Positions 6,626 through 28,954 of a stretch of DNA of 64,000 nucleotides are shown here, one piece after another. The position numbers and the translations under genes were made by a program. The notes below the pieces were generated by a model, which had not been told where the DNA came from, did not search any database, and was given only the letters and a program-made list of their open reading frames with translations. The DNA comes from an uncultured Chloroflexia bacterium (GTDB lineage: Bacteria > Chloroflexota > Dehalococcoidia > UBA2979), in NCBI GenBank assembly GCA_963728205.1, contig CAVSIV010000001.1, positions 576,001-640,000 of the forward strand. The letters are read 5' to 3'. Every line of letters begins with the position of its first letter. Position 1 is the stretch's first letter.

Positions 6626-6950
6626 GCGTCCGCCTTCGGCCGATACAGCCCCGTCGTGGTGGCGCCGCATGCTAGCAACGCCTCAGCCCCCTGCCAACAA
6701 CGCACCGCGACGCCGCCGCGTTCTCGGCGATTCATTCGCGTCCGTCGCCACGACGACAACGGACGCAAACGGCCGCTTCGAGCGGTCGTCGACACGCTCC
6801 TCCCGGCCCCCTGCCCCAGCAGCATCAGTCAGTACAATCTGGCCGCGCACGTGGTCGCACTTCGAATGGCCGAAATCGACTTCCCGCTCGGGTAGGCTCA
6901 CCCTTGAAGCAACCCGGATCATTCTGTGCGAGGTCCGCAGGGAGCGCGAC

Positions 6951-7448
6951 GTGTTTGAGACAGCGAGCGAACTGGCGGCGCTCCAGGCGCTGCTCGACCG
7001 AAGCTTCGGCGCGAGCGGCGAGCACATGCGCGGAATCGTCACGGCCGAGCGTCGGCTGACGGCGGTGCAGGTCGCGAACTACCTTCAGGGCGTGAAGCAC
7101 GTGTCGTTCGGCACGGTGAGCAGCAACTGTGAGCCGTTCGTCTCGCCGCTCGACGGCTGGTTCCTGCACGGCCAGTTCATCGTGAGCACCGCAGCGAAGG
7201 CCGTTCGGGCGAGGCACGTGCGGCGAAAGCCGGCCGTGAGTCTCGCCCACGTCGTCGGCGACGACATCGGCATCTGGGTGCACGGAAGGGCACGGATCGC
7301 CGGGAGAGGTGATCCGCTCGTCGACGAATACGACCGCGTCGCGACAGAAACGTACGGGAGCAGCCCGTTCGGCTGGGGCGACGTCGTGGTCATGCCGATC
7401 GAACCGCGGGTGATGTTCGCCTACGCGCCCGATCCCGCGAAGTACTGA
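6951..7448 (+). CDS. Pyridoxamine 5'-phosphate oxidase-like (split-barrel flavin/F420) protein
   Basis: GTG start after GGGAG; ETASELAALQALLDRS...EPFVSPLDGWFLHG...RARHVRRKPAVS pattern. Confidence 0.8.
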   Translation: MFETASELAALQALLDRSFGASGEHMRGIVTAERRLTAVQVANYLQGVKHVSFGTVSSNCEPFVSPLDGWFLHGQFIVSTAAKAVRARHVRRKPAVSLAHVVGDDIGIWVHGRARIAGRGDPLVDEYDRVATETYGSSPFGWGDVVVMPIEPRVMFAYAPDPAKY

Positions 7449-7667
7449 GCGATTGCATCGTGAGGGATTGCCGGGAAGGTGGGGACGCGCGGATCTCCTC
7501 CGCGCGGAAGATCCAGGGCGCCCCACGATCTCGCAGTAGTGTCCCCGACGCCGAAGGCGACGAGGGGCTCGGCCCTGCCGTCGGTCCCAGTGCTTAGACT
7601 CTGACCGGCCTGAAATGCAGCCGTTCACGACCCATCCGACGGACTTCGCCCACGAAGGGACCGCCCA

Positions 7668-8452: not shown

Positions 8453-9307
8453 CTAGGGTCGGTTCGCCCGTTCGATCGGGAAGCCGACGATCGAGCCCCA
8501 CTCCGTCCACGAGCCGTCGTAAACGCGAACGTTCGACCAGCCGAGGAGGCGACTCGCGGCGAACCAGCCAAGCGACGCTCGATGCGAGAGACGACAGTAG
8601 GTCACCACGTCCAGCTCGGGGGTCGCACCGACCGAACGTAGCTGCCCCTCAATCGCATCGGCATCGAGGAACACCCCTTCCTCGTCGAGCAGGTGCTCGA
8701 AGTACAGGTGCCGGGCGCCCGGAATCCTCCCGGCTCGCTCCGCGCCGTGGTCGACCGCGTACGAGGAAGGCGAGACGCGAGCGCCCTCCCATTCCTCGTC
8801 CGTGCGCATGTCGATCAGGACGCGCGCGGGATCGTCCAGGTGTGCTCGCACGTCGTCGCGTCCGACCTCCGCTGCAATGCCCGCGGGGCCCGGCGTGACT
8901 TGCGCTGCCACCGGTGGGCCACTGGGTTCGCGGGTTACGGCGAACCCTTGCGACAGCCAGCGCGCGCGCCCACCGTCAAGGACACTCGCGACGTGATCTA
9001 GGCCGGTCAGTGCGAGCACCCAGTAGGCGTACGTAGCGAATTGAATTGGGTCTCCCACCAGGACGACGTGTGAACGGTCGGAGATCCCGAGCTCACCGAG
9101 TCGGCGCGCCATCTCTTCGGCCGCCGGGAATGCTCGGTCACGCTCGTCCCAGCAGAGTGCCTTCCACCACGCGAAGCGCGCACCTCGAATGTGTCCTTCG
9201 CGAAAGTACCGGGCTTGGGGCTCGGGCTCTGACGACACCTCGACGACAACCAGGTCGGGGTCGTCCAGACGATCGTTTAGCCACTCGGCCGTCACCAGTG
9301 GGTGCAT
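8453..9307 (-). CDS. Tandem-rhodanese sulfurtransferase
   Basis: LVTAEWL, GHIRGA, LDGG, GRIPGA, active-site YCRLSHR, VYDGSWTEW. Confidence 0.92.
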   Translation of the reverse strand: MHPLVTAEWLNDRLDDPDLVVVEVSSEPEPQARYFREGHIRGARFAWWKALCWDERDRAFPAAEEMARRLGELGISDRSHVVLVGDPIQFATYAYWVLALTGLDHVASVLDGGRARWLSQGFAVTREPSGPPVAAQVTPGPAGIAAEVGRDDVRAHLDDPARVLIDMRTDEEWEGARVSPSSYAVDHGAERAGRIPGARHLYFEHLLDEEGVFLDADAIEGQLRSVGATPELDVVTYCRLSHRASLGWFAASRLLGWSNVRVYDGSWTEWGSIVGFPIERANRP

Positions 9308-10007
9308 TTGCTGTACTCCTCGCCAGCACCGCGCCTGATCCGCGGGCGGCGGCGACGTGCCTGTGCCGCCTGGCACGGCGGCTCCCGGGTTCATCGTTGC
9401 CGATGCGACGCGAGCGATCGTAGGACCGGGTGCGCCGAGCGTGAACTTCACGATCGCGCGATCGTCGCGGCGACCGCTCGCCCCGCGTCCATCGGCGGCG
9501 CCGTGCTCCATCGGCTCGCAGCTGCCGGGCCGCGCGGTCGGCGAGCCGGCTCCGGTCGTCGCCGTCGGATCGCGCTCGGTCGCTCGTGGGCGCGTGAGTC
9601 CTCGCATGCGATCGCAGGCACTCGTTTGTCCTCGGCGTCCTCGCCCGACCTATCTGCAGGCTTCGACGCCGCTCGGCGAGGCGCCGCCGACGCGAACGGC
9701 GTCGAAGCAGGTACCAGGCGACTCCACGTCGCAGTCAAAGGAGGCCGCCCCGCAGCCAGGCGGCCGGCCGCGTAACCCACGGCGTCCGCGGCGAGGGCGG
9801 TCCGGACCGTCGCACGGTCGACGCGCGGGGTTGTGCCCTCGCCGCGAACGCGCGGCAGTCGGCACGATGCCGTCGTCGTTCCCCACGGCGCAGGCCCCAA
9901 GCACAGGGACGGCCGCGGGCATCGGACTCGGACGAACGTCCGAGGCGACGTGGCGGCGTGGGCGGGTAGCATCGGCGCTGACATGGCGCGACGTGAGGAG
10001 GACCGAT

Positions 10008-11462
10008 ATGACGGGGGAAGGGGCGGGCGAGCGACGTGCGCTGGTGATCGGCGGCAGCATGGGCGGCCTCCTTGCCGCGCGCGCACTGTCCGATCACTTC
10101 GGCTACGTCGGCATCGTCGAACGCGATGCGTTTCCGCAAATCGGGGAGAATCGCCGCGGCGTGCCGCAGGGGCATCACACGCACGGCCTGCTCTCGCGGG
10201 GCGCGGCAATCCTCGAGCAGATGCTGCCGGGACTGAGCGACGAGGTCGTCGCGGACGGCGGCCTGCGCGGCGACCCGGGCCTGCGTGGGCGATGGGTGGT
10301 CGACGGGCGCCCCATACGCCGGGTCGTGACCGGTCGCGAAGGGCTGCTCGTCAGCCGCCCGCGGCTCGAGGGGCACGTGCGGCGCCGTGTGCTCGAGCTG
10401 CCGTCGGTCGAGGCGCTGACGGGTTGCGCCGCGCGAGGGCTCGCGATGTCGGACGACGGTCGGCGCGTGGTCGGGCTGCGCGTGCAGCGCGAGGGCGCGG
10501 TGGAGGAAGTCGTGCCCGCCGACCTGGTCGTCGACGCGACCGGACGGGGGTCGCAGAGCCCGCGCTGGCTGGAGGCAGTCGGCTTCCCGCCTCCCGGCGA
10601 GGAGCGGGTCGAGGTCGACATCCGGTACATGACGCGCCTCTACCGTCGTCGTCCCGAACACCTCGTCGGCGATCGCTTCGTCCTGCTCGCCGCGACGCCG
10701 CCGAGCGGCCGCGCGGGATTCGTGACCGCGATCGAGGGGATGCGGTGGATGGTCACGCTGCAGACCTACCTCGGCGAGCGGCTGCCCAGCGACGACGCGG
10801 GGTTCCGCGCGTTCGCGGCCTCGCTGCCGGCGCCGGACATCGCTGCAGTCCTAGACGACGCGGAGCCGTGCAGCGACGCGGTGGCATACCACTACCCGGC
10901 GAGTCAGCGCCGGCGCTACGACCGGCTGCGCCGGTTTCCGGAGGGCTATCTCGTGTTCGGTGACGCGGTCTGCAGCTTCAATCCTGTGTACGGGCAGGGG
11001 ATGAGCATGGCCGCCATCGAAGCCGCAGCGCTCGACGACTGTCTCCGCCGTGGTGCGCGCGACACCCTGGCCCACCGCTTCTTCCAGGCGATTGCGCGGC
11101 CGATTGAGTCCGCGTGGCGGGCGTCGGCCGAGAGCGATCTGCGGTTTCCCGCCGTGACTGGCCGCCGGCCGCTGCGCGTCCGCCTCGCAAATCGCTACGC
11201 AGATCGTCTGGCACGCGTCGCAGAGCGTGACCACGCAGTGGCGGCCGCGGTGCTCGCGCTCATCAACCTCGAAGCCGGCCCCGAGGCGGTGATGCGCCCG
11301 ACGATTCTGTGGCGCGCGCTCTTCGGCGCCTCGCGGGGTGCCCCCGCCGTGGACGAGACGCGAGAAGGCGCGTGGATGGCGGTGCGCGACGTGCTCGGCG
11401 ATGTGGAGCGTCAGTCGTCCGAAGCTGAGCCGGGGGCTGACACCCGCGCGGCGGCCGGGTAG
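10008..11462 (+). CDS. FAD-dependent oxidoreductase/monooxygenase
   Basis: RBS GAGGAGG; VIGGSMGG Rossmann motif, RRGVPQG.H.H, DLVVDATGRGS, GDAVCSFNPVYGQGM. Confidence 0.9.
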   Translation: MTGEGAGERRALVIGGSMGGLLAARALSDHFGYVGIVERDAFPQIGENRRGVPQGHHTHGLLSRGAAILEQMLPGLSDEVVADGGLRGDPGLRGRWVVDGRPIRRVVTGREGLLVSRPRLEGHVRRRVLELPSVEALTGCAARGLAMSDDGRRVVGLRVQREGAVEEVVPADLVVDATGRGSQSPRWLEAVGFPPPGEERVEVDIRYMTRLYRRRPEHLVGDRFVLLAATPPSGRAGFVTAIEGMRWMVTLQTYLGERLPSDDAGFRAFAASLPAPDIAAVLDDAEPCSDAVAYHYPASQRRRYDRLRRFPEGYLVFGDAVCSFNPVYGQGMSMAAIEAAALDDCLRRGARDTLAHRFFQAIARPIESAWRASAESDLRFPAVTGRRPLRVRLANRYADRLARVAERDHAVAAAVLALINLEAGPEAVMRPTILWRALFGASRGAPAVDETREGAWMAVRDVLGDVERQSSEAEPGADTRAAAG

Positions 11463-13095: not shown

Positions 13096-13815
13096 TTAAC
13101 CAACCGGCGCTGCCCGCCCGATTCTTCTCCGCAGCAGCACGATCGCCAGCGCCGCCATCCACAGCAGCCACGCACCGTAGGAGACGCGCTCGACAGCACC
13201 CATCCACGGAGTCGCCTCCCCGGCCGCCACGGCGGACGTCGTTGTCGCCACGTACGCTCCGGCTGCGAGGGTGGTGATGGCCATCGCGATCGAGAAGTAT
13301 CGGAAGCGCACGCCGAGAGCAGTGGCGCTCGCGCCGATCTCGGTAATGATGAAGAGGACCGCCACCATACCGAGCACCATGTGCCCTACATCGTTGGCAC
13401 CACCGGCGCCCTCCGCTAGTTCCTCGCGCGACGTCATCGGGAACAGAAGCCACAGGGGGAACATGATCGCCTGCGCGACGAGAATGCCGCCCGCCAGGCG
13501 CAGCGCGCGGCGCGCGCCTGCGACCCGCCACACGCCGATCCCGAAGCCGAGCACGAGCAACGTGAAGACGGGCATCATCGCGGTCAGGAACGCCCTCGAC
13601 GGAGCACCGGTCCCCGACAGTTCGCTGATTGCCTGATCGGCGCGGCTGTAGCCGTCGTACACGGAGGCCGCGATTACGTCGTTGGCAATGATGTAGCCGA
13701 CGCCGTATCCGATCCCGCAAGCGAGCAGAACGGTGTTGATCACGCCTGTCGTGCTTCGCGGTGAAGGCTTGCCGCCTGGCGCGCGCAGCGCTGGCCGCCG
13801 CACTGACATTGACAT
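13096..13815 (-). CDS. DUF998-like membrane protein
   Basis: LLACGI...GYSRADQAISEL...H...GAVERVS pattern with multiple TM segments. Confidence 0.75.
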   Translation of the reverse strand: MSMSVRRPALRAPGGKPSPRSTTGVINTVLLACGIGYGVGYIIANDVIAASVYDGYSRADQAISELSGTGAPSRAFLTAMMPVFTLLVLGFGIGVWRVAGARRALRLAGGILVAQAIMFPLWLLFPMTSREELAEGAGGANDVGHMVLGMVAVLFIITEIGASATALGVRFRYFSIAMAITTLAAGAYVATTTSAVAAGEATPWMGAVERVSYGAWLLWMAALAIVLLRRRIGRAAPVG

Positions 13816-13955
13816 GATCGCGCACTCCGAGTGCACACTCGTTCCGATTGGAGCCCGCAGCTTCGCTCGGGCAAGCGAGCGTCCGTCAGAGTCGTTCGTC
13901 CTCCGATTTCGAGGACACGCGGTGCCGGTCGGGCCGTTGCGCGTCCGGACAGCAG

Positions 13956-14118
13956 CACTTTCATCCGATAGCCGCCCGAAGGGCTCTGGTAGATCAGCAC
14001 GTTCGGGCCAAACCAGGTCCACAACCCGCTCCGGGACTCCGTCTGTTCCCAGACCTGCCCGTTACACAGCGAGTGGATGTTCCAGGCGTTCAGGCCGGTG
14101 AACTGTCCGCTGATGCAT
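13956..14118 (-). pseudogene. Fragment of a small NGQ(V/I)W-motif domain
   Basis: ISGQFTG...LCNGQVWEQT...PNVLIYQS..GGYRMKV within ORF 13740-14186; the flanking parts of that ORF look non-coding. Confidence 0.4.
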
Positions 14119-14133
14119 TTCGGCCCCGCTCCC

Positions 14134-14742
14134 TCATGGAGTCGCGGTGATCGCCAAGGGCAACGCGATGGCCCGTGCGGGATCATCCCCGACCAGCAAG
14201 GTTGCTTGGGCGGCGTTCGCCGCTAGCGCGAAGTCCACTTCGCCCGTCTTCGTAGTTCCACCGTCCACGAGCTCATCGAGGAGGTTCGTTGGCGCACTCG
14301 TGTCAGTGCCGTCGCGCAATCGGAAGGTCGCGCTCCAGAAGTTCGCCGGGTAGCGGTTCTCGTTGGTCATGCGCACCGTCAAGGTGAGCCGCAGCTCGCC
14401 CGGATTTCCCGGACGGGCAACCGCCGACAGGATCGCGTAATGGGCATCGCCGACGATGGCGGTGCCGCCGCTCGGCAGGCTCACCTGATAGGCGGTGGCG
14501 CCGGCGGTCGTCGCGGTCCCCACTGCCGCGCCGGCGCCACCGGGTCCATCACTGCGACCCGGCGCCGTGGTCGCAACGAGCGCGCGTGGCGTGGGGGCCA
14601 CACTCGCCGTCGGCCGCAACTGCTGCATGGCGACAACGAATCCGGTGATCGCGGTGAGCAAGGCTGCGATCGCCGTCAGGATCCCCGGCAGCGTCTGCCA
14701 CCAGCTCCGGTCACCGCGGCCGCCGCTTCCGCTCTCCGTCAT
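14134..14742 (-). CDS. Membrane-anchored protein with Ig-like (DUF4352-like) C-terminal domain
   Basis: WWQTLPGILTAIAALLTAITG anchor, low-complexity linker, beta-rich LTLTVRMTN...FRL...GEVDF domain. Confidence 0.65.
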   Translation of the reverse strand: MTESGSGGRGDRSWWQTLPGILTAIAALLTAITGFVVAMQQLRPTASVAPTPRALVATTAPGRSDGPGGAGAAVGTATTAGATAYQVSLPSGGTAIVGDAHYAILSAVARPGNPGELRLTLTVRMTNENRYPANFWSATFRLRDGTDTSAPTNLLDELVDGGTTKTGEVDFALAANAAQATLLVGDDPARAIALPLAITATP

Positions 14743-14849
14743 CGCTCGACACTCCCCGGCTCCGGCCGACGCACCGGCTCGGCCCGCGCCCGATGCGACC
14801 GGACGGGAGTCTACGTCATGCCGATGAGGGACAAGGGGGCACGGCGTGC

Positions 14850-15239
14850 AAGCGGCTGGCTCGCGCCCACGCCGACGGCGCATTTGCTGATGTCGAGGAC
14901 GAGCAGCGCCTCTCCGAGATCGATGCCCAGCTCACGGTCCTGCGTCCCATCGAGCTGGACGCGGTACAGGCTGTCGCAGATCGTCTGAAGGACTTGCCGC
15001 GGCTCTGGCGGCTTGCCACCAATGCCGAGCGGCGGCACCTCGTACAACCGCTGCTCCGGCAGGTCTTGGTGGACCTGCACACCAGGCAAGTCACGGGTCT
15101 GGTGCCTCTGCCGGCGTTCCGCCTGCTTCTGGAAAAGGCGGTTGTCCGGCCGAGTCGGACCGCGGTGGAGGTTTTGGTGGACCCGAGGGGGCTCGAACCC
15201 CTGACCTCCACACTGCCAGTGTGGCGCTCTCCCAGCTGA
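14850..15239 (+). pseudogene. C-terminal remnant of large serine recombinase
   Basis: KRLARAHADGAF...RLSEIDAQL...LWRLATNAERRHLVQPLLRQVLVDL resembles the coiled-coil/C-terminus of serine integrases. No catalytic domain; the frame ends inside the tRNA. Confidence 0.65.
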
Positions 15240-15250
15240 GCTACGGGCCC
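15175..15250 (-). tRNA. tRNA-Ala(GGC)
   Basis: GGGCCCGTAGCTCAGCTGGGAGAGCGCCACACTGGCAGTGTGGAGGTCAGGGGTTCGAGCCCCCTCGGGTCCACCA: 76-nt cloverleaf, GGC anticodon, G3-U70 pair, encoded CCA. Confidence 0.97.
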
Positions 15251-15436
15251 GCGGGAAGAACAGGTTAGCGGAGCGCCCCGGGTACGCGCGAGCCGTCACG
15301 CGCTCCCTCCCCGTCCGGATCGGCTGAGGCGACCAGAGCGGCGCGCGTGGCTCCGCTCCGGCCCCGTCCCGCTAGGATGCGCACGCGTGGCTGCTCTCCG
15401 AGCAGCCGGCACCGGCGGGCGGAGGAAGGGCCGGAG

Positions 15437-16936
15437 ATGCCCGGAGCGATGCTCGACTTCCCCGATGCCGACGACTACGCGCGCGTGCGCGACGTGTTTC
15501 GTGCCGCGGGATACACCGACGAGGCCGTCGCGACGACCCTCCGCGACGAGGAGCTCCCGGCGGGGATGCAGAAGCGCCTGCCGGTCCTGCTCGCTCGCAC
15601 GCGCGCCGGCACCCCCCTGCACACGCTGATTCGGCTCTTCGTCCTGGGCGCGGGCGCCAATCCCGAAGCCGTCGCGGCGGCGCTGGCCCCGATGACCCCG
15701 GCGCAGTGGGTCGAGCGCGGGTTGCTCGAAGCGCACGACGGCGAGCTTCGCGCCACCCTCCAGGTCCGCTGCTACCAGGACCTGCTCGTCGCGTGGGACT
15801 TCTCGCTCGAGACGCGAGGCGTGCTGCACCCGGATTATGTGATGGGGATCAGCGCCAGCACCCTCAGCCTCGCCGGGCTGACGGTGCGGCGCCCGGTCGA
15901 CTCGACGCTCGACCTCGGCACGGGCTCGGGCTTCCAGGCCTTCATGGCCGCACGGCACAGCCGGCGCGTCGTCGCGGTCGACAAGAACCCGCGCGCGGTG
16001 CAGGTCGCGCGCTTCAACGCACGCCTCAACGCGCTCGACCACGTCGAGTGCCGCGAAGGCGATCTCTTCGCGCCGGTCGTCGGGGAGCGCTTCGACCTGA
16101 TCGTGTCGAATCCGCCGTTCATCGTCTCGCCGGACAACGCGTACTTCTTCCTGCACGGCGGCATGAAGGGCGACGAGGTCTGCCAGCGGATCGCCCGCGA
16201 GGCCCCGGCGCTGCTGAACGCCGGCGGCTCCTGCCAGTTCCTCGCGAACTGGGCCGTCCTGCGCGGCGTGGACTGGGAGGAGCGGCTGCGGTCGTGGTTC
16301 GCGGACTCGGGCTGCGACGTCTGGGTGCTGCGACGCGGTGAGCAGACCGTGGACCGGTACGCGGCGACCTGGATCGAGACCGGCGAGCAGCGCGTCGCGT
16401 CCGATCGGTACGCGGGCGCCTTCCGCGAGTGGATGGAGTACTACGAGCGCGAGGGGATCGAAGCCGTCGGCGCCGGTGTGATCACGATGCGCCGCTCGTC
16501 CACTCGCGCCCCGTGGTTCCGGGTGACCGAGGGGCCGTCGGCGATGAGCTTCCCGTCGGGCGGGGACGTGGCGCAGCTGATGGACGCGCTCGGCGCGCTG
16601 GCGACGACCGACGACGACGCGCTGCTCGAGTGGCGGCCGGCGGTCTCGGACGCCGTGCGGCTCCGACGCGAGTATCGGATCGCGCCCGGCGGTGGATGGG
16701 AGCTCGAGGCGGGTCAGCTGCGGCGCATCCGTGGCTTGCAGTACGAGGGTGCGATCGACGCCTACGGCGCGGAGCTCGTCGGTCGGCTCGACGGGCGCCG
16801 CACGCTCCGGTCCGTGATCGACGAACTGGCGGCCGAGACCGGCGTCGAGACCTCGGCCGTCCGCGACGCGGCCATTCCAATCGTGCGGCACCTGGTCGAG
16901 CAGGGGTTCCTGCTCCCGGGCGCGCCCGGCCCCTAG
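15437..16936 (+). CDS. Class I SAM-dependent N-methyltransferase with C-terminal PqqD-like winged helix
   Basis: LDLGTGSG motif I, VAVDKNPRA, IVSNPPF motif IV; C-terminal LDGRRTLRSVIDELA...LVEQGFL. Confidence 0.88.
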   Translation: MPGAMLDFPDADDYARVRDVFRAAGYTDEAVATTLRDEELPAGMQKRLPVLLARTRAGTPLHTLIRLFVLGAGANPEAVAAALAPMTPAQWVERGLLEAHDGELRATLQVRCYQDLLVAWDFSLETRGVLHPDYVMGISASTLSLAGLTVRRPVDSTLDLGTGSGFQAFMAARHSRRVVAVDKNPRAVQVARFNARLNALDHVECREGDLFAPVVGERFDLIVSNPPFIVSPDNAYFFLHGGMKGDEVCQRIAREAPALLNAGGSCQFLANWAVLRGVDWEERLRSWFADSGCDVWVLRRGEQTVDRYAATWIETGEQRVASDRYAGAFREWMEYYEREGIEAVGAGVITMRRSSTRAPWFRVTEGPSAMSFPSGGDVAQLMDALGALATTDDDALLEWRPAVSDAVRLRREYRIAPGGGWELEAGQLRRIRGLQYEGAIDAYGAELVGRLDGRRTLRSVIDELAAETGVETSAVRDAAIPIVRHLVEQGFLLPGAPGP

Positions 16937-17409
16937 CGCTTGGTGTTCCCCCGCAGATCCCACCCGGCGGAGACGGGAGCGCCGTTGCCGCCCCTGGCGT
17001 CCTGCGGCCTGTACTCGTACTCGATCTTCGCAAAGTTCAGCGACACCGATTCCTCGGGGACGGATTCGGTCGCGCCGGCCTCGTTGTAGCTGGAGACGAC
17101 GACATCGGACAGGGTGATCTGCAGGTACTCCACCGGGATCTCGCCGGACCGGCGCACCGTGAGGACGGCATCCTTCAGGTGGCTGCCGCTCGCGCATGCC
17201 TCCATCAGGCGTGGGGACGCGACGCTCACCCGCGACGTGAAGGTGAAGTCCTGGAACGAGGGCCGTCCTGCGGCCGCTGCGCCGGCGCTGCGCGAGATTG
17301 CCTGCGAGAGCCCCCAGCTGAACGACTCGACCTCGATCTCGTCCTTGTGCTTGTCGTCCTGGCTCTCGCCCGAGATGCCGTCGAGCTTGAGGAACATGTC
17401 CGCGGCCAT
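16933..17409 (-). CDS. hcp: Type VI secretion tube protein Hcp (orphan)
   Basis: DMFLKLDGISGESQDDKHKDEIEVESFSWG...ASPRL..ACASG.H...EYLQITLSDVVVSSY...ESVSLNFAKIEYEY..Q...GWDL: full-length Hcp1 signature. Confidence 0.95.
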   Translation of the reverse strand: MAADMFLKLDGISGESQDDKHKDEIEVESFSWGLSQAISRSAGAAAAGRPSFQDFTFTSRVSVASPRLMEACASGSHLKDAVLTVRRSGEIPVEYLQITLSDVVVSSYNEAGATESVPEESVSLNFAKIEYEYRPQDARGGNGAPVSAGWDLRGNTKR

Positions 17410-17411
17410 GG

Positions 17412-17948
17412 CTACAGTGCCTCCGTCTGCAGTGAGAGGGTGATGGTGGCGGTGCCGTCGCCGCCGAGCTCGCTATGGCCCTGGCGAATCAGGTACGAGC
17501 CGCGCGCTCCGACGTAGCGCCCCGTGCCGCCGACGATGGCGAACTCGTCCTCGCTGTCGAGGCCGTCCCCCGTCCGCCCGAGCCCCATGATTGCGCCGTC
17601 CGGGAGGGTGATGACGTGGTGCTCGAGGCTGGCGAGCGCCCCGAAGCGCTGGCCGGCGTTCATGCTGATGTACGTGCCCGCGAACTCGCCAATCGGCGCC
17701 TCGGCATCCGGGCGCGGGAAGAGCGCACCGGACACGAGCATCCGCTGACCGACCTCGGGCAGCTGCCCGGCCGCCAGCTCGCGGGATTGCACGTGCCAGT
17801 CGCGCCCGTGCAGGACCATCGCGTTCCCTGCCGGCGTCCCCGCGGGTGTCGACGGCGCTCGGTCGAACGCCCCCATCGTGCCGACGCCGACGAGGCCGCC
17901 CGCGAACAGCAGACCGCGCTTGAGTAACGACCGTCTCGATTCCGACAT
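17412..17948 (-). CDS. Tat-signal protein with dirigent/allene oxide cyclase-like beta-barrel
   Basis: SRRSLLK twin-arginine signal; ITLPDGAIMG...FAIVGGTGRYVGARG motif; stop lies 2 nt before the hcp start. Confidence 0.75.
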   Translation of the reverse strand: MSESRRSLLKRGLLFAGGLVGVGTMGAFDRAPSTPAGTPAGNAMVLHGRDWHVQSRELAAGQLPEVGQRMLVSGALFPRPDAEAPIGEFAGTYISMNAGQRFGALASLEHHVITLPDGAIMGLGRTGDGLDSEDEFAIVGGTGRYVGARGSYLIRQGHSELGGDGTATITLSLQTEAL

Positions 17949-18034
17949 CTTCTGCCTCGGCTCTCGCGCAAGTACGACCATGGTTCTAGCAGCGTGCGTC
18001 CTGTCGCGGGGCGCCGCAGAATCTCAAGAATTCG

Positions 18035-18364
18035 TCAGAAAACGCGGCGGCGCGCCCGGCGCTCCGCCGGCCGCATCAGCCGCGCGTGCGCGCGGCGGTA
18101 CGCGGCCGACTCCCGGCGCGGGTCGTCCGCGAGGTCGGGCAGCTCGACCAGCGTCATCGCGTCGCGCCAGAAATGGGCGCGCGAGAGGGTGAGCGCGAAG
18201 CAGCCGTCCGCGACGGGTGGAGCGGCTACGACGGCCCCGTCCAGGGCGTCCGCCACACGCGCGGCTACGGCGCCGGCGGCGAGGTGTACCCGTACATCTG
18301 GCTGAACGCCCAGCGAGCGAAGCCGACCGCACCGCGCAGGCGGAGCACGGGCCAGGCGGTGCAT
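18035..18364 (-). CDS. Hypothetical protein
   Basis: ATG preceded by AGGGGG; fills the gap between co-oriented genes; no motif. Confidence 0.3.
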   Translation of the reverse strand: MHRLARAPPARCGRLRSLGVQPDVRVHLAAGAVAARVADALDGAVVAAPPVADGCFALTLSRAHFWRDAMTLVELPDLADDPRRESAAYRRAHARLMRPAERRARRRVF

Positions 18365-28096: not shown

Positions 28097-28194
28097 CGCT
28101 TCAGGCGCGCCGTGAGTCCCGCGCACCTCACGCCGCGAGAGGTGGCGACCTCCCGGCTGCGGAGTCGGCTCTTGCCCACGGCGCGCCTGAAGCG
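28097..28194. repeat. Perfect 18-bp inverted repeat with 62-nt spacer
   Basis: CGCTTCAGGCGCGCCGTG (28097-28114) / CACGGCGCGCCTGAAGCG (28177-28194). Confidence 0.85.
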
Positions 28195-28219
28195 CGCCCC
28201 CGCCCGCCCGTGCGCGGCG

Positions 28220-28954
28220 TCAGCGTAGAGGCCGCTTCGACGGCAGGCCGGCGCGGCGCGGGTAACGGTCGTCCAGCGGCCCCGTACGTCGCACGAGCAG
28301 CACCAGCTGCTCGTAGGGCCCCGGCGGGAGCGGCAACGGGCGCGCCGCCAGCGGCTCGCCGCCGAGCGCCGCGATCGCCGCGCTCGCCTCGGCGAGCTCG
28401 TCGCGCGCGCGGCTGCCCTTCGGCGCGGCGAGCACGCCGCCCTCGCACAGCAGCGGCAGCGCGTACTCCACGAGCACCGCCAGCGGCGCGAGCGCCCGCG
28501 CCACCACGACATCGAACGCCGCGCGCAGCGCCGGGTCGCGCCCGGCGTCCTCCGCGCGGGTGTGTCGGACGTCCACGTCATCGAGCCCGAGCTCGCGTGC
28601 CGCGAGCTCGAGGAACGCCGCCCGGCGAGCGTGCGACTCCACGAGCGTCAGCCGCAGCGCCGGCTCCACGATGCGCATCGGCAGCCCGGGGAACCCGCCG
28701 CCCGGCCCCAGGTCCGCCACCCGCGCCGCCGCACCGGCGACGAGCACCCCCGCCTCGCGCAGCACGGCGAGCAGCGCCAGCGACTCGCCGAAGTGCCGTC
28801 GCTCGACCTCGTCCGGATCGGTCACGGTCGTCAGGCCGGCGCGCTCGTTCCACTCGAGCAGCAGGTCGCGGTAGCGTGCAAACGCCGCGCACTGGGCGTC
28901 GCTCAGCGCCAGGCCGAGCCGGGCCGCGTCGGCGGGCAGCAGCGAGAGCGTCAC
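28220..28954 (-). CDS. rsmG: 16S rRNA m7G527 methyltransferase
   Basis: LLLEWN...LT, RHFGESL, DLGPGGGFPGLP, LVES, RAE, FDVVVARA, YPRRAGLP.K.PL. Confidence 0.93.
   Translation of the reverse strand: MTLSLLPADAARLGLALSDAQCAAFARYRDLLLEWNERAGLTTVTDPDEVERRHFGESLALLAVLREAGVLVAGAAARVADLGPGGGFPGLPMRIVEPALRLTLVESHARRAAFLELAARELGLDDVDVRHTRAEDAGRDPALRAAFDVVVARALAPLAVLVEYALPLLCEGGVLAAPKGSRARDELAEASAAIAALGGEPLAARPLPLPPGPYEQLVLLVRRTGPLDDRYPRRAGLPSKRPLR

Follow-up and report, generated by a model that had tools for sequence, protein, structure and literature searches.

Hcp (TssD) is regarded as both a component and a hallmark of the system for type VI secretion (T6SS), a machine of double-membrane bacteria. 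In the auxiliary hcp islands of this system, Hcp1/TssD is the tube subunit and serves in addition as chaperone and carrier of small effectors that are encoded beside hcp. An escort of another kind is found in Streptomyces, where MelC1, a caddie protein with a twin-arginine translocation (Tat) signal, accompanies the signal-less tyrosinase MelC2. The locus described here lies at positions 15437-17948 of a 64,000-nucleotide stretch of DNA from an uncultured Chloroflexia bacterium (the whole stretch, C1:576001-640000 of its assembly, is called the window below). It holds an intact hcp gene, which follows a gene for a Tat-signal β-barrel protein and converges on a methyltransferase gene.

The locus resembles the Hcp-cargo pairs of the T6SS in that a canonical Hcp1-type protein is encoded beside a small protein of about 15 kDa in its mature form, and in that the small barrel partner may instead follow VgrG. 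It differs from them in that the genome has no sheath, TssF or TssK, the partner is encoded upstream and carries an invariant Tat signal, a methyltransferase is linked to the pair, and the hosts belong mostly to single-membrane phyla. With MelC1/MelC2 it shares a small Tat-signal protein encoded directly upstream of a signal-less partner. However, the partner here is Hcp, which normally forms large hexamers, and complex formation and co-export are in this case inferred from the genes. A comparison of the barrel profile N-terminus with the signal regions of MelC1 and AioB gave E values of 0.17-0.2, which are not significant.

No described system has the composition and context of this cassette, even though all of its parts come from known families; this comparison is one of genes, not of a demonstrated mechanism. 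The core of the cassette is the barrel-Hcp pair, with the methyltransferase as a frequent third partner. Its carriers belong to five phyla or more, and their genomes nearly always lack a T6SS sheath. No publication on the trio was found by an abstract-level search, nor any on DUF7782/DUF7059 or on Hcp in monoderm phyla that have no T6SS, a prior description being possible, and in two passages of the article PMC3482391 Hcp is given only as a part of the T6SS. The features of the locus are as follows.

15437-16936, + strand: methyltransferase gene, 499 aa; DUF7059, MTS core with NPPF, and DUF7782/PqqD-like tail; alternative GTG start at 15347
16933-17409, - strand: Hcp (TssD family) gene, 158 aa; PF05638; no signal peptide
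17412-17948, - strand: Tat-signal barrel gene, 178 aa; dirigent/allene oxide cyclase (AOC)/PodA-like; alternative ATG start at 17981
17859-17948, - strand: twin-arginine signal peptide region, about residues 1-30; RR codons at 17931-17936; SRRSLLKRG, then a hydrophobic stretch
17407-17424, - strand: translational coupling junction; GGAGG at 17420-17424, TAG at 17412-17414, 2-nt gap, Hcp ATG at 17407-17409
16933-16936, no strand: overlapping convergent stops of the Hcp and methyltransferase genes; palindrome CTAG, from open reading frame (ORF) coordinates and sequence

All three ORFs show the strong third-position GC bias that is typical of genuine genes in this sequence of 72% GC. The GGAGG that precedes hcp lies inside the barrel gene, 10 nt 5' of the Hcp ATG. 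An earlier note on this DNA, made from the letters alone, had described a canonical and intact but orphan hcp, its ribosome-binding site inside the upstream gene with a 2-nt gap, an upstream Tat protein with a dirigent/AOC-like barrel, and a CTAG that interlocks the stops of hcp and of an NPPF methyltransferase. Every one of these sequence statements holds, and a phage-type tail cluster, discussed below, is to be added just outside the window.

Conservation of the cassette and lack of T6SS genes

A barrel-centred search returned 83 relatives, and the best 80 loci, which come from 76 assemblies, are assigned by their record titles to Actinomycetota (36), Chloroflexota (24), Acidobacteriota (8), Dormibacterota (6), Bacillota (1) and others (5). 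Hcp is encoded directly downstream of the barrel gene and on the same strand in 71 of the 80 when searched by tblastn with the window's Hcp, and in 73 of the 80 with a hidden Markov model (HMM) that was partly built from the same loci. One of the seven HMM misses sits at a contig edge, and five of the remaining six are among the most distant matches. The median distance from the barrel stop to the Hcp start is 3 nt (68 loci). A methyltransferase gene is found within 3 kb at 50 of the 80 loci. In 16 of these it lies downstream and in 14 upstream, co-directional in both cases; 14 have the convergent layout of the window, and 6 are divergent. At six of the loci listed as convergent the ends of the methyltransferase and Hcp ORFs overlap by 4 nt. 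The linkage counts, together with 14 of 19 genomes, considered further below, that showed no full-length methyltransferase, make the barrel-Hcp pair the core of the cassette. The earlier note had put forward a three-gene module and had named a lack of conserved linkage in other genomes as the outcome that would count against it. The pair is in fact well conserved, and the place of the methyltransferase has to be revised, from an obligate to a frequent member.

The same linkage is seen when the search does not start from the barrel. In a sample of 401 Chloroflexota genomes, which includes the source genome (G000) and an unpublished genome (G145), Hcp occurs in 18 and the DUF7782 methyltransferase in 8, yet the two are adjacent in 4 genomes, always with the barrel gene and in three different gene orders, so that the linkage is far above chance. 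The barrel gene is also upstream, as detected by HMM, in all three Hcp-methyltransferase pairs from Thermoleophilia and Actinomycetes (L007, L008 and L016). For each of the three window genes, the closest relatives include two Acidimicrobiia loci (L176 and L186), which show 49-54% identity and the same convergent layout. The cassette thus seems to move between phyla as a unit.

A few loci show other arrangements of the barrel gene. In an Actinomycetota metagenome-assembled genome (MAG), a VgrG gene (L245, 1252-3207; Phage_GPD 1e-82 and an OB domain) lies 3 nt upstream of a barrel gene; this MAG has no TssC and also holds a barrel-Hcp-methyltransferase cassette (L200). P0023 (599 aa) is the second VgrG-barrel neighbour. 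It was considered as a VgrG-barrel fusion, but its C-terminal part reads as a frameshift into the barrel gene, which leaves adjacency only. A 348-aa ORF in L247 that appears to fuse barrel and Hcp is joined across a run of N and was rejected as an artefact.

The source assembly (4.1 Mb in 6 contigs, 89% complete, 5.6% contamination) holds a single copy of Hcp. No HMM match to TssC or TssF was found in this 89% complete assembly, and tblastn with Bryobacterales T6SS queries found no match to TssB, TssC, TssK or ImpE; TssE, TssG, TssM, TssJ, TssL and ClpV lay outside the assembly search. The earlier note had proposed a use of Hcp outside a T6SS, for example as ring scaffold, chaperone, surface filament or methylation substrate, to be given up if a complete T6SS were present elsewhere in the genome. 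The failure to find TssB, TssC, TssF or TssK anywhere in the assembly supports a use outside the T6SS as such, whichever of these roles applies. The same picture is obtained from related genomes. None of the 17 other Chloroflexota genomes with Hcp gave a TssC match, nor did any of 7 more monoderm genomes with Hcp (G401-405, 407 and 408). Of 66 barrel-Hcp genomes 50 were searched for TssC, and the single one that has it carries it on contigs other than that of the cassette. In a Solirubrobacterales MAG (L175; G406:C7:868000-886000, about 8600-11250), TssB, TssC and Hcp are each present in pieces in different frames, representing either a decaying actinobacterial T6SS or indel errors of long-read assembly.

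The three proteins of the cassette

The window's Hcp matches PF05638 from end to end (E 3e-40, 137.9 bits against a cut-off of 23.5) and TIGR03344 (64.9 bits, cut-off 58.9), and it aligns over its full length with Hcp1 of Pseudomonas aeruginosa (PA0085, 1y12; E 2.5e-38). To judge from these matches it is an ordinary T6SS tube protein by descent, not a member of a divergent family. In short Hcp trees it groups with other cassette Hcps and with the tube proteins of Gemmataceae and Rubrivivax. In a tree of 161 columns the cassette label requires 7 changes, compared with 31 in shuffles, and the starred branches allow a single origin. When 59 cassette Hcps were compared with 40 from four mostly double-membrane phyla, six of the latter being methyltransferase-linked or behind a weak barrel homologue, the cassette proteins were found to be relaxed at several T6SS-conserved positions; Y133, for example, falls from 100% to 58%, Q136 from 97% to 53% and G140 from 100% to 71%. 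A complex prediction for Hcp and the mature barrel (residues 30-178) scored 0.00 twice, with no controls, and weighs neither way.

Three Hcp-family proteins of Chloroflexota (L073, 3516-4163, - strand; L081, 3373-3990, - strand; L083, about 6950-7564, - strand) have no barrel partner and instead carry an N-terminal signal or anchor of their own. Their chosen starts have a good ribosome-binding site, and the extension shows coding-type GC at third codon positions. Because these Hcps bring their own export signals, they suggest that Hcp may work outside the cytoplasm in this T6SS-less phylum. Further Hcp variants occur in the same phylum. Behind the first Hcp of four Chloroflexota cassettes lies a second, extended one of 362-371 aa (L072, 7473-8558; L211, 4001-5095; L214, 4001-5107; L218, 1669-2781), whose C-terminal extension of about 210 aa has no Pfam match and resembles T6SS Hcp-effector fusions. 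Five related Chloroflexota genomes with the genus code g114 (L076, L079, L080, L082, L084, L085, L088 and L090) hold 1-4 divergent Hcp-family genes each, with no TssC in the genome and no barrel or methyltransferase neighbour.

The barrel protein passes the gathering thresholds of two Pfam families, with 32.7 bits for PF03018 (Dirigent), where 29.1 are needed, and 27.2 bits for PF18678 (AOC_like), where 25.9 are needed. Its AlphaFold2 (AF2) model, made from a 59-row alignment, has a mean predicted local distance difference test score (pLDDT) of 82.9 and consists of 8 strands with a disordered signal region in front. Foldseek places PodA (5k21) at the top, with E 1.3e-7 and a template-modelling score of 0.82 on the target, together with the Diels-Alderases Cyc15 and AbyU, allene oxide cyclases and plant dirigent proteins. 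An eight-stranded barrel is common to all of these (Foldseek E values from 1e-7 to 1e-4). Identity is 14-23%, and the likeness stands at the level of fold and weak profile. A profile search against the PDB gave Cyc15b (1.5e-5), a dirigent protein (3.3e-4) and PodA (0.012), whereas a single-sequence search against the PDB gave nothing. The look-alikes all bind or transform small hydrophobic molecules, and by its model the protein is predicted to be a β-barrel of the small-molecule-binding type. Several of the look-alikes form trimers. We know of no pairing of PodA, Diels-Alderases, allene oxide cyclases or dirigent proteins with Hcp.

The family of the barrel protein is large, with 1704 representatives at E ≤0.001 in a library clustered at 50% identity. 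The best 150 of them are nearly all stand-alone proteins of about 165-205 aa that are matched from the RR region onward. The two arginines (R5 and R6) are invariant in all 59 aligned relatives, where the only other invariant positions are five glycines and one tyrosine (Y145), with Y152 near-invariant. TatC is encoded in the source genome (E 5e-58). With an RR motif, a hydrophobic region behind it and a translocase in the cell, the barrel protein has the attributes of a Tat substrate and is predicted to be exported.

The methyltransferase matches PF05175 (2.8e-17), PF25004 (1.8e-15) and PF23186 (7.4e-11). Its tail (residues 440-492) gives a marginal match to PF05402 (PqqD; 24.2 bits against a cut-off of 23.4, E 4.3e-5), and the same match is seen in a Bryobacterales paralogue. 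Its scores lie below the cut-off of every NCBIfam equivalog. In particular it does not qualify as HemK/PrmC: NPPF is present, but TIGR03534 reaches 72.2 bits against a cut-off of 199.1, and the architecture, with DUF7059 and DUF7782, differs. Foldseek aligned about 370-400 columns of the AF2 model (pLDDT 92) with GenN and AerE, both at E about 1e-21, and the methyltransferases that came next stood at 1e-11; matches by sequence were GenN at 7e-17 and HemK at 1e-10. GenN is the gentamicin 3''-N-methyltransferase, which acts on an aminoglycoside amine, and AerE is the asparagine N-methyltransferase of aeronamide. The cassette enzyme has the multi-domain fold of these two and their NPP[FY] and S-adenosylmethionine (SAM) motifs, HemK/PrmC being more distant, but adds the C-terminal DUF7782/PqqD-like domain. 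Among 46 relatives, D159, G163 and G165 of the SAM motif and N225 and P227 are invariant, and at least 90% have G161 and P226. On the model the enzyme is therefore a predicted GenN/AerE-like N-methyltransferase, and its motifs indicate that it is catalytically intact.

A methyltransferase-centred search found at least 581 relatives. Only 4 of the best 80 loci have Hcp within 4 kb; the rest are mostly of a Streptomyces type and share two large conserved neighbours, whose families occur at 59 and 58 of the 80 loci. A tree of 91 enzymes, from which a duplicate (L015) and a partial sequence (L089) were dropped and which was obtained by a quick search with no mixture model, splits with 100% support in the Shimodaira-Hasegawa-like approximate likelihood ratio test into 73 actinomycete enzymes, none of them Hcp-linked, and 18 others, of which 12 are Hcp-linked. 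The actinomycete branch is a housekeeping one; the window's enzyme falls by sequence in the other, Hcp- and T6SS-associated branch. Within these 18, the enzymes of Gemmataceae and Bryobacterales come from true T6SS clusters. In a Gemmataceae cluster checked by Pfam, the order is TssB-TssC-Hcp-methyltransferase, followed by an enzyme like a protein-lysine methyltransferase (PKMT), and in a Bryobacterales cluster, likewise checked, it is MT-TssK-MT-TssB-TssC-Hcp-ImpE, where MT is the methyltransferase. Of 201 Planctomycetota genomes sampled, 5 contain the family, and in 2 of these (G409 and G630) it lies beside hcp in a T6SS cluster. As a barrel gene is missing from these T6SS clusters, it is Hcp that the methyltransferase neighbourhoods have in common. 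The second enzyme behind the Gemmataceae DUF7782 methyltransferase (L101, 5459-7009; L094, 5522-7096) has the PKMT-type domains PF21782 and PF10119 of the Rickettsia protein-lysine methyltransferase family, as checked by Pfam for L101 and taken from the ORF list for L094.

Proposed mechanism and alternative explanations

Because these genes are found together again and again in bacteria without a T6SS, most of them with a single membrane, Hcp probably has an undescribed job there. What that job might be is less certain. The locus belongs, as one copy, to a conserved cassette that occurs without a T6SS. In the mechanism preferred here, to which as a whole a probability of roughly 40% is given, Hcp pairs with the barrel protein, which is exported by Tat, and is probably co-exported with it, while the methyltransferase modifies one of the two proteins. 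The translationally coupled Hcp and barrel would be made in equal amounts and form a complex, which the invariant RR signal of the barrel would take in folded form through the Tat translocase, on the model of MelC1 escorting tyrosinase. Alternatively, the barrel may cross by Tat alone after its release from Hcp. If the complex is exported, it follows that Hcp would act outside the cytoplasm in cells that are unable to fire a T6SS, serving the barrel as its carrier, ring scaffold or cap. Before export, the methyltransferase would N-methylate a cassette protein, either Hcp or the barrel. Hcp is the more likely target of the two, since the adjacency of methyltransferase and Hcp persists in true T6SS clusters that have no barrel gene.

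Several points weigh against this reading. The binding of Hcp to the barrel and the exit of Hcp from the cell are predictions from gene arrangement and sequence. An assembled Hcp hexamer is about 9 nm wide, which is large for Tat, and co-export would therefore need a species smaller than the ring. No true barrel-Hcp fusion was found in a search of the family library for longer homologues, which is weak evidence, and some Hcps of T6SS-less Chloroflexota (for example L071) lack a signal peptide as well as a barrel partner. For the methylation step, the comparison of 59 cassette Hcps with 40 others revealed no residue gained specifically by the former that could be a methylation site. Nor is the methyltransferase always at hand: among 19 barrel-Hcp genomes that lack it at the locus, a full-length copy exists elsewhere in 5 and none is shown in 14, and, conversely, 4 of the 8 methyltransferase-bearing Chloroflexota genomes have no Hcp. 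Finally, the closest folds include small-molecule enzymes (GenN and PodA), and a role centred on a metabolite would fit them equally well.

A bolder version, which must be considered doubtful, holds that Hcp, and in some genomes VgrG, may be the visible parts of a so far undescribed system of single-membrane bacteria for sheath-less export or surface assembly. Such a system would be fed by Tat with the barrel as pilot, and its tube protein would be marked by the N-methyltransferase, likewise in the T6SS clusters of Planctomycetota and Acidobacteriota.

It is also possible, though on balance unlikely, that Hcp is a cytoplasmic holdase, which keeps the barrel precursor stable or export-competent while Tat exports the barrel alone. 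The tight coupling, with its median gap of 3 nt, the lack of a signal peptide on Hcp, a fold and length unchanged from T6SS Hcp1, and the fact that the barrel pairs with VgrG too, as a cargo would, are all consistent with such a role, which parallels the stabilization of small effectors by Hcp in the T6SS and the guarding of Tat substrates by dedicated chaperones. However, a holdase leaves the methyltransferase unexplained, and it does not sit well with the three partner-less Hcp-family proteins of the same phylum that have export signals of their own.

A small-molecule cassette is quite unlikely. Here the methyltransferase would N-methylate a metabolite in the manner of GenN, the exported barrel would bind or transform this or a related compound outside the cell, and Hcp would be an accessory scaffold. 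The folds recall such a pathway, with GenN at about 1e-21 as the top match of the enzyme and PodA, Cyc15, AbyU and AOC as those of the barrel, and the methyltransferase does occur without Hcp. This explanation gives no reason, however, for the near-obligate coupling of barrel and Hcp (71-73 of 80) or for methyltransferases beside hcp inside T6SS clusters. The tail of the enzyme gives a marginal match to PqqD, a peptide-binding type of domain, and AerE, whose fold matches just as well, has a peptide as its substrate; the title of its structure entry states that it is bound to a modified peptide substrate. In addition, the conserved positions of the barrel are mostly glycines.

It is very improbable that the Hcp forms the tube of another contractile machine, either a T6SS lying unseen in the 11% that is missing from the 89% complete assembly, or the phage-type contractile-tail cluster at C1:540-555 kb, which resembles an extracellular contractile injection system. 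The cluster lies 22-36 kb before the window start, and its sheath (L005, 6287-7375; phrog tail sheath, 2.4e-25), its gpD-like hub (L005, 17722-19089) and a PAAR-like ORF with an in-frame TAG (C1:554010-554171) are about 38-52 kb from hcp; it also encodes a 1143-aa protein. Yet the usual place of tube genes, directly behind the sheath, is taken in this cluster by two small ORFs of its own (with no family match), TssC is missing in 49 of 50 cassette genomes, and of 10 other monoderm genomes with Hcp (Chloroflexota and Actinomycetota) only 1 gave a match to a phage-type sheath C-domain, for which reason the cluster is treated as incidental.

Least credible of all is a decaying and now functionless remnant of a horizontally acquired T6SS, for which the broken TssB, TssC and Hcp of the Solirubrobacterales MAG and the position of the closest cassette relatives in another phylum could be cited, but which is contradicted by intact ORFs at 30-54% identity in at least 70 loci of five or more phyla, by invariant RR, SAM and NPP motifs, by a conserved coupling junction and by the fact that the barrel and methyltransferase are not T6SS core genes.

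Surroundings of the locus and wider significance

A scan of the locus gave no promoter-like sites, and the one terminator-like site found lies inside the methyltransferase gene and is not above chance. For window positions 15300-18100 no sequencing run is listed. Directly upstream of the methyltransferase gene is a tRNA-Ala(GGC) gene (15175-15250, - strand), which is overlapped on the opposite strand by an ORF (14793-15239, + strand) with no Pfam match. The ORFs at 13096-14883 have a lower GC content and a weak coding signal and may mark an old integration site. A tRNA-Sec gene with the anticodon TCA is located farther along, at window positions 28129-28220 (- strand).

The wider interest of the locus is that Hcp has been kept intact, coupled to a partner with a Tat signal, in dozens of genomes that have no T6SS and belong mostly to single-membrane phyla. 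If Hcp is exported by Tat, or if it acts as a ring chaperone for a Tat substrate, a well-studied protein would turn out to have a new use, and the clients of Tat would include a new type of pair. The DUF7059/DUF7782 methyltransferase family is flagged by its neighbourhoods as a T6SS-associated accessory gene, and methylation of Hcp can be tested in cultivable Gemmataceae or Acidobacteriota. If the bolder reading of a sheath-less system is true, parts of the T6SS would have a second life outside contractile machines, and methylation of Hcp would be an unrecognized layer of the T6SS itself.

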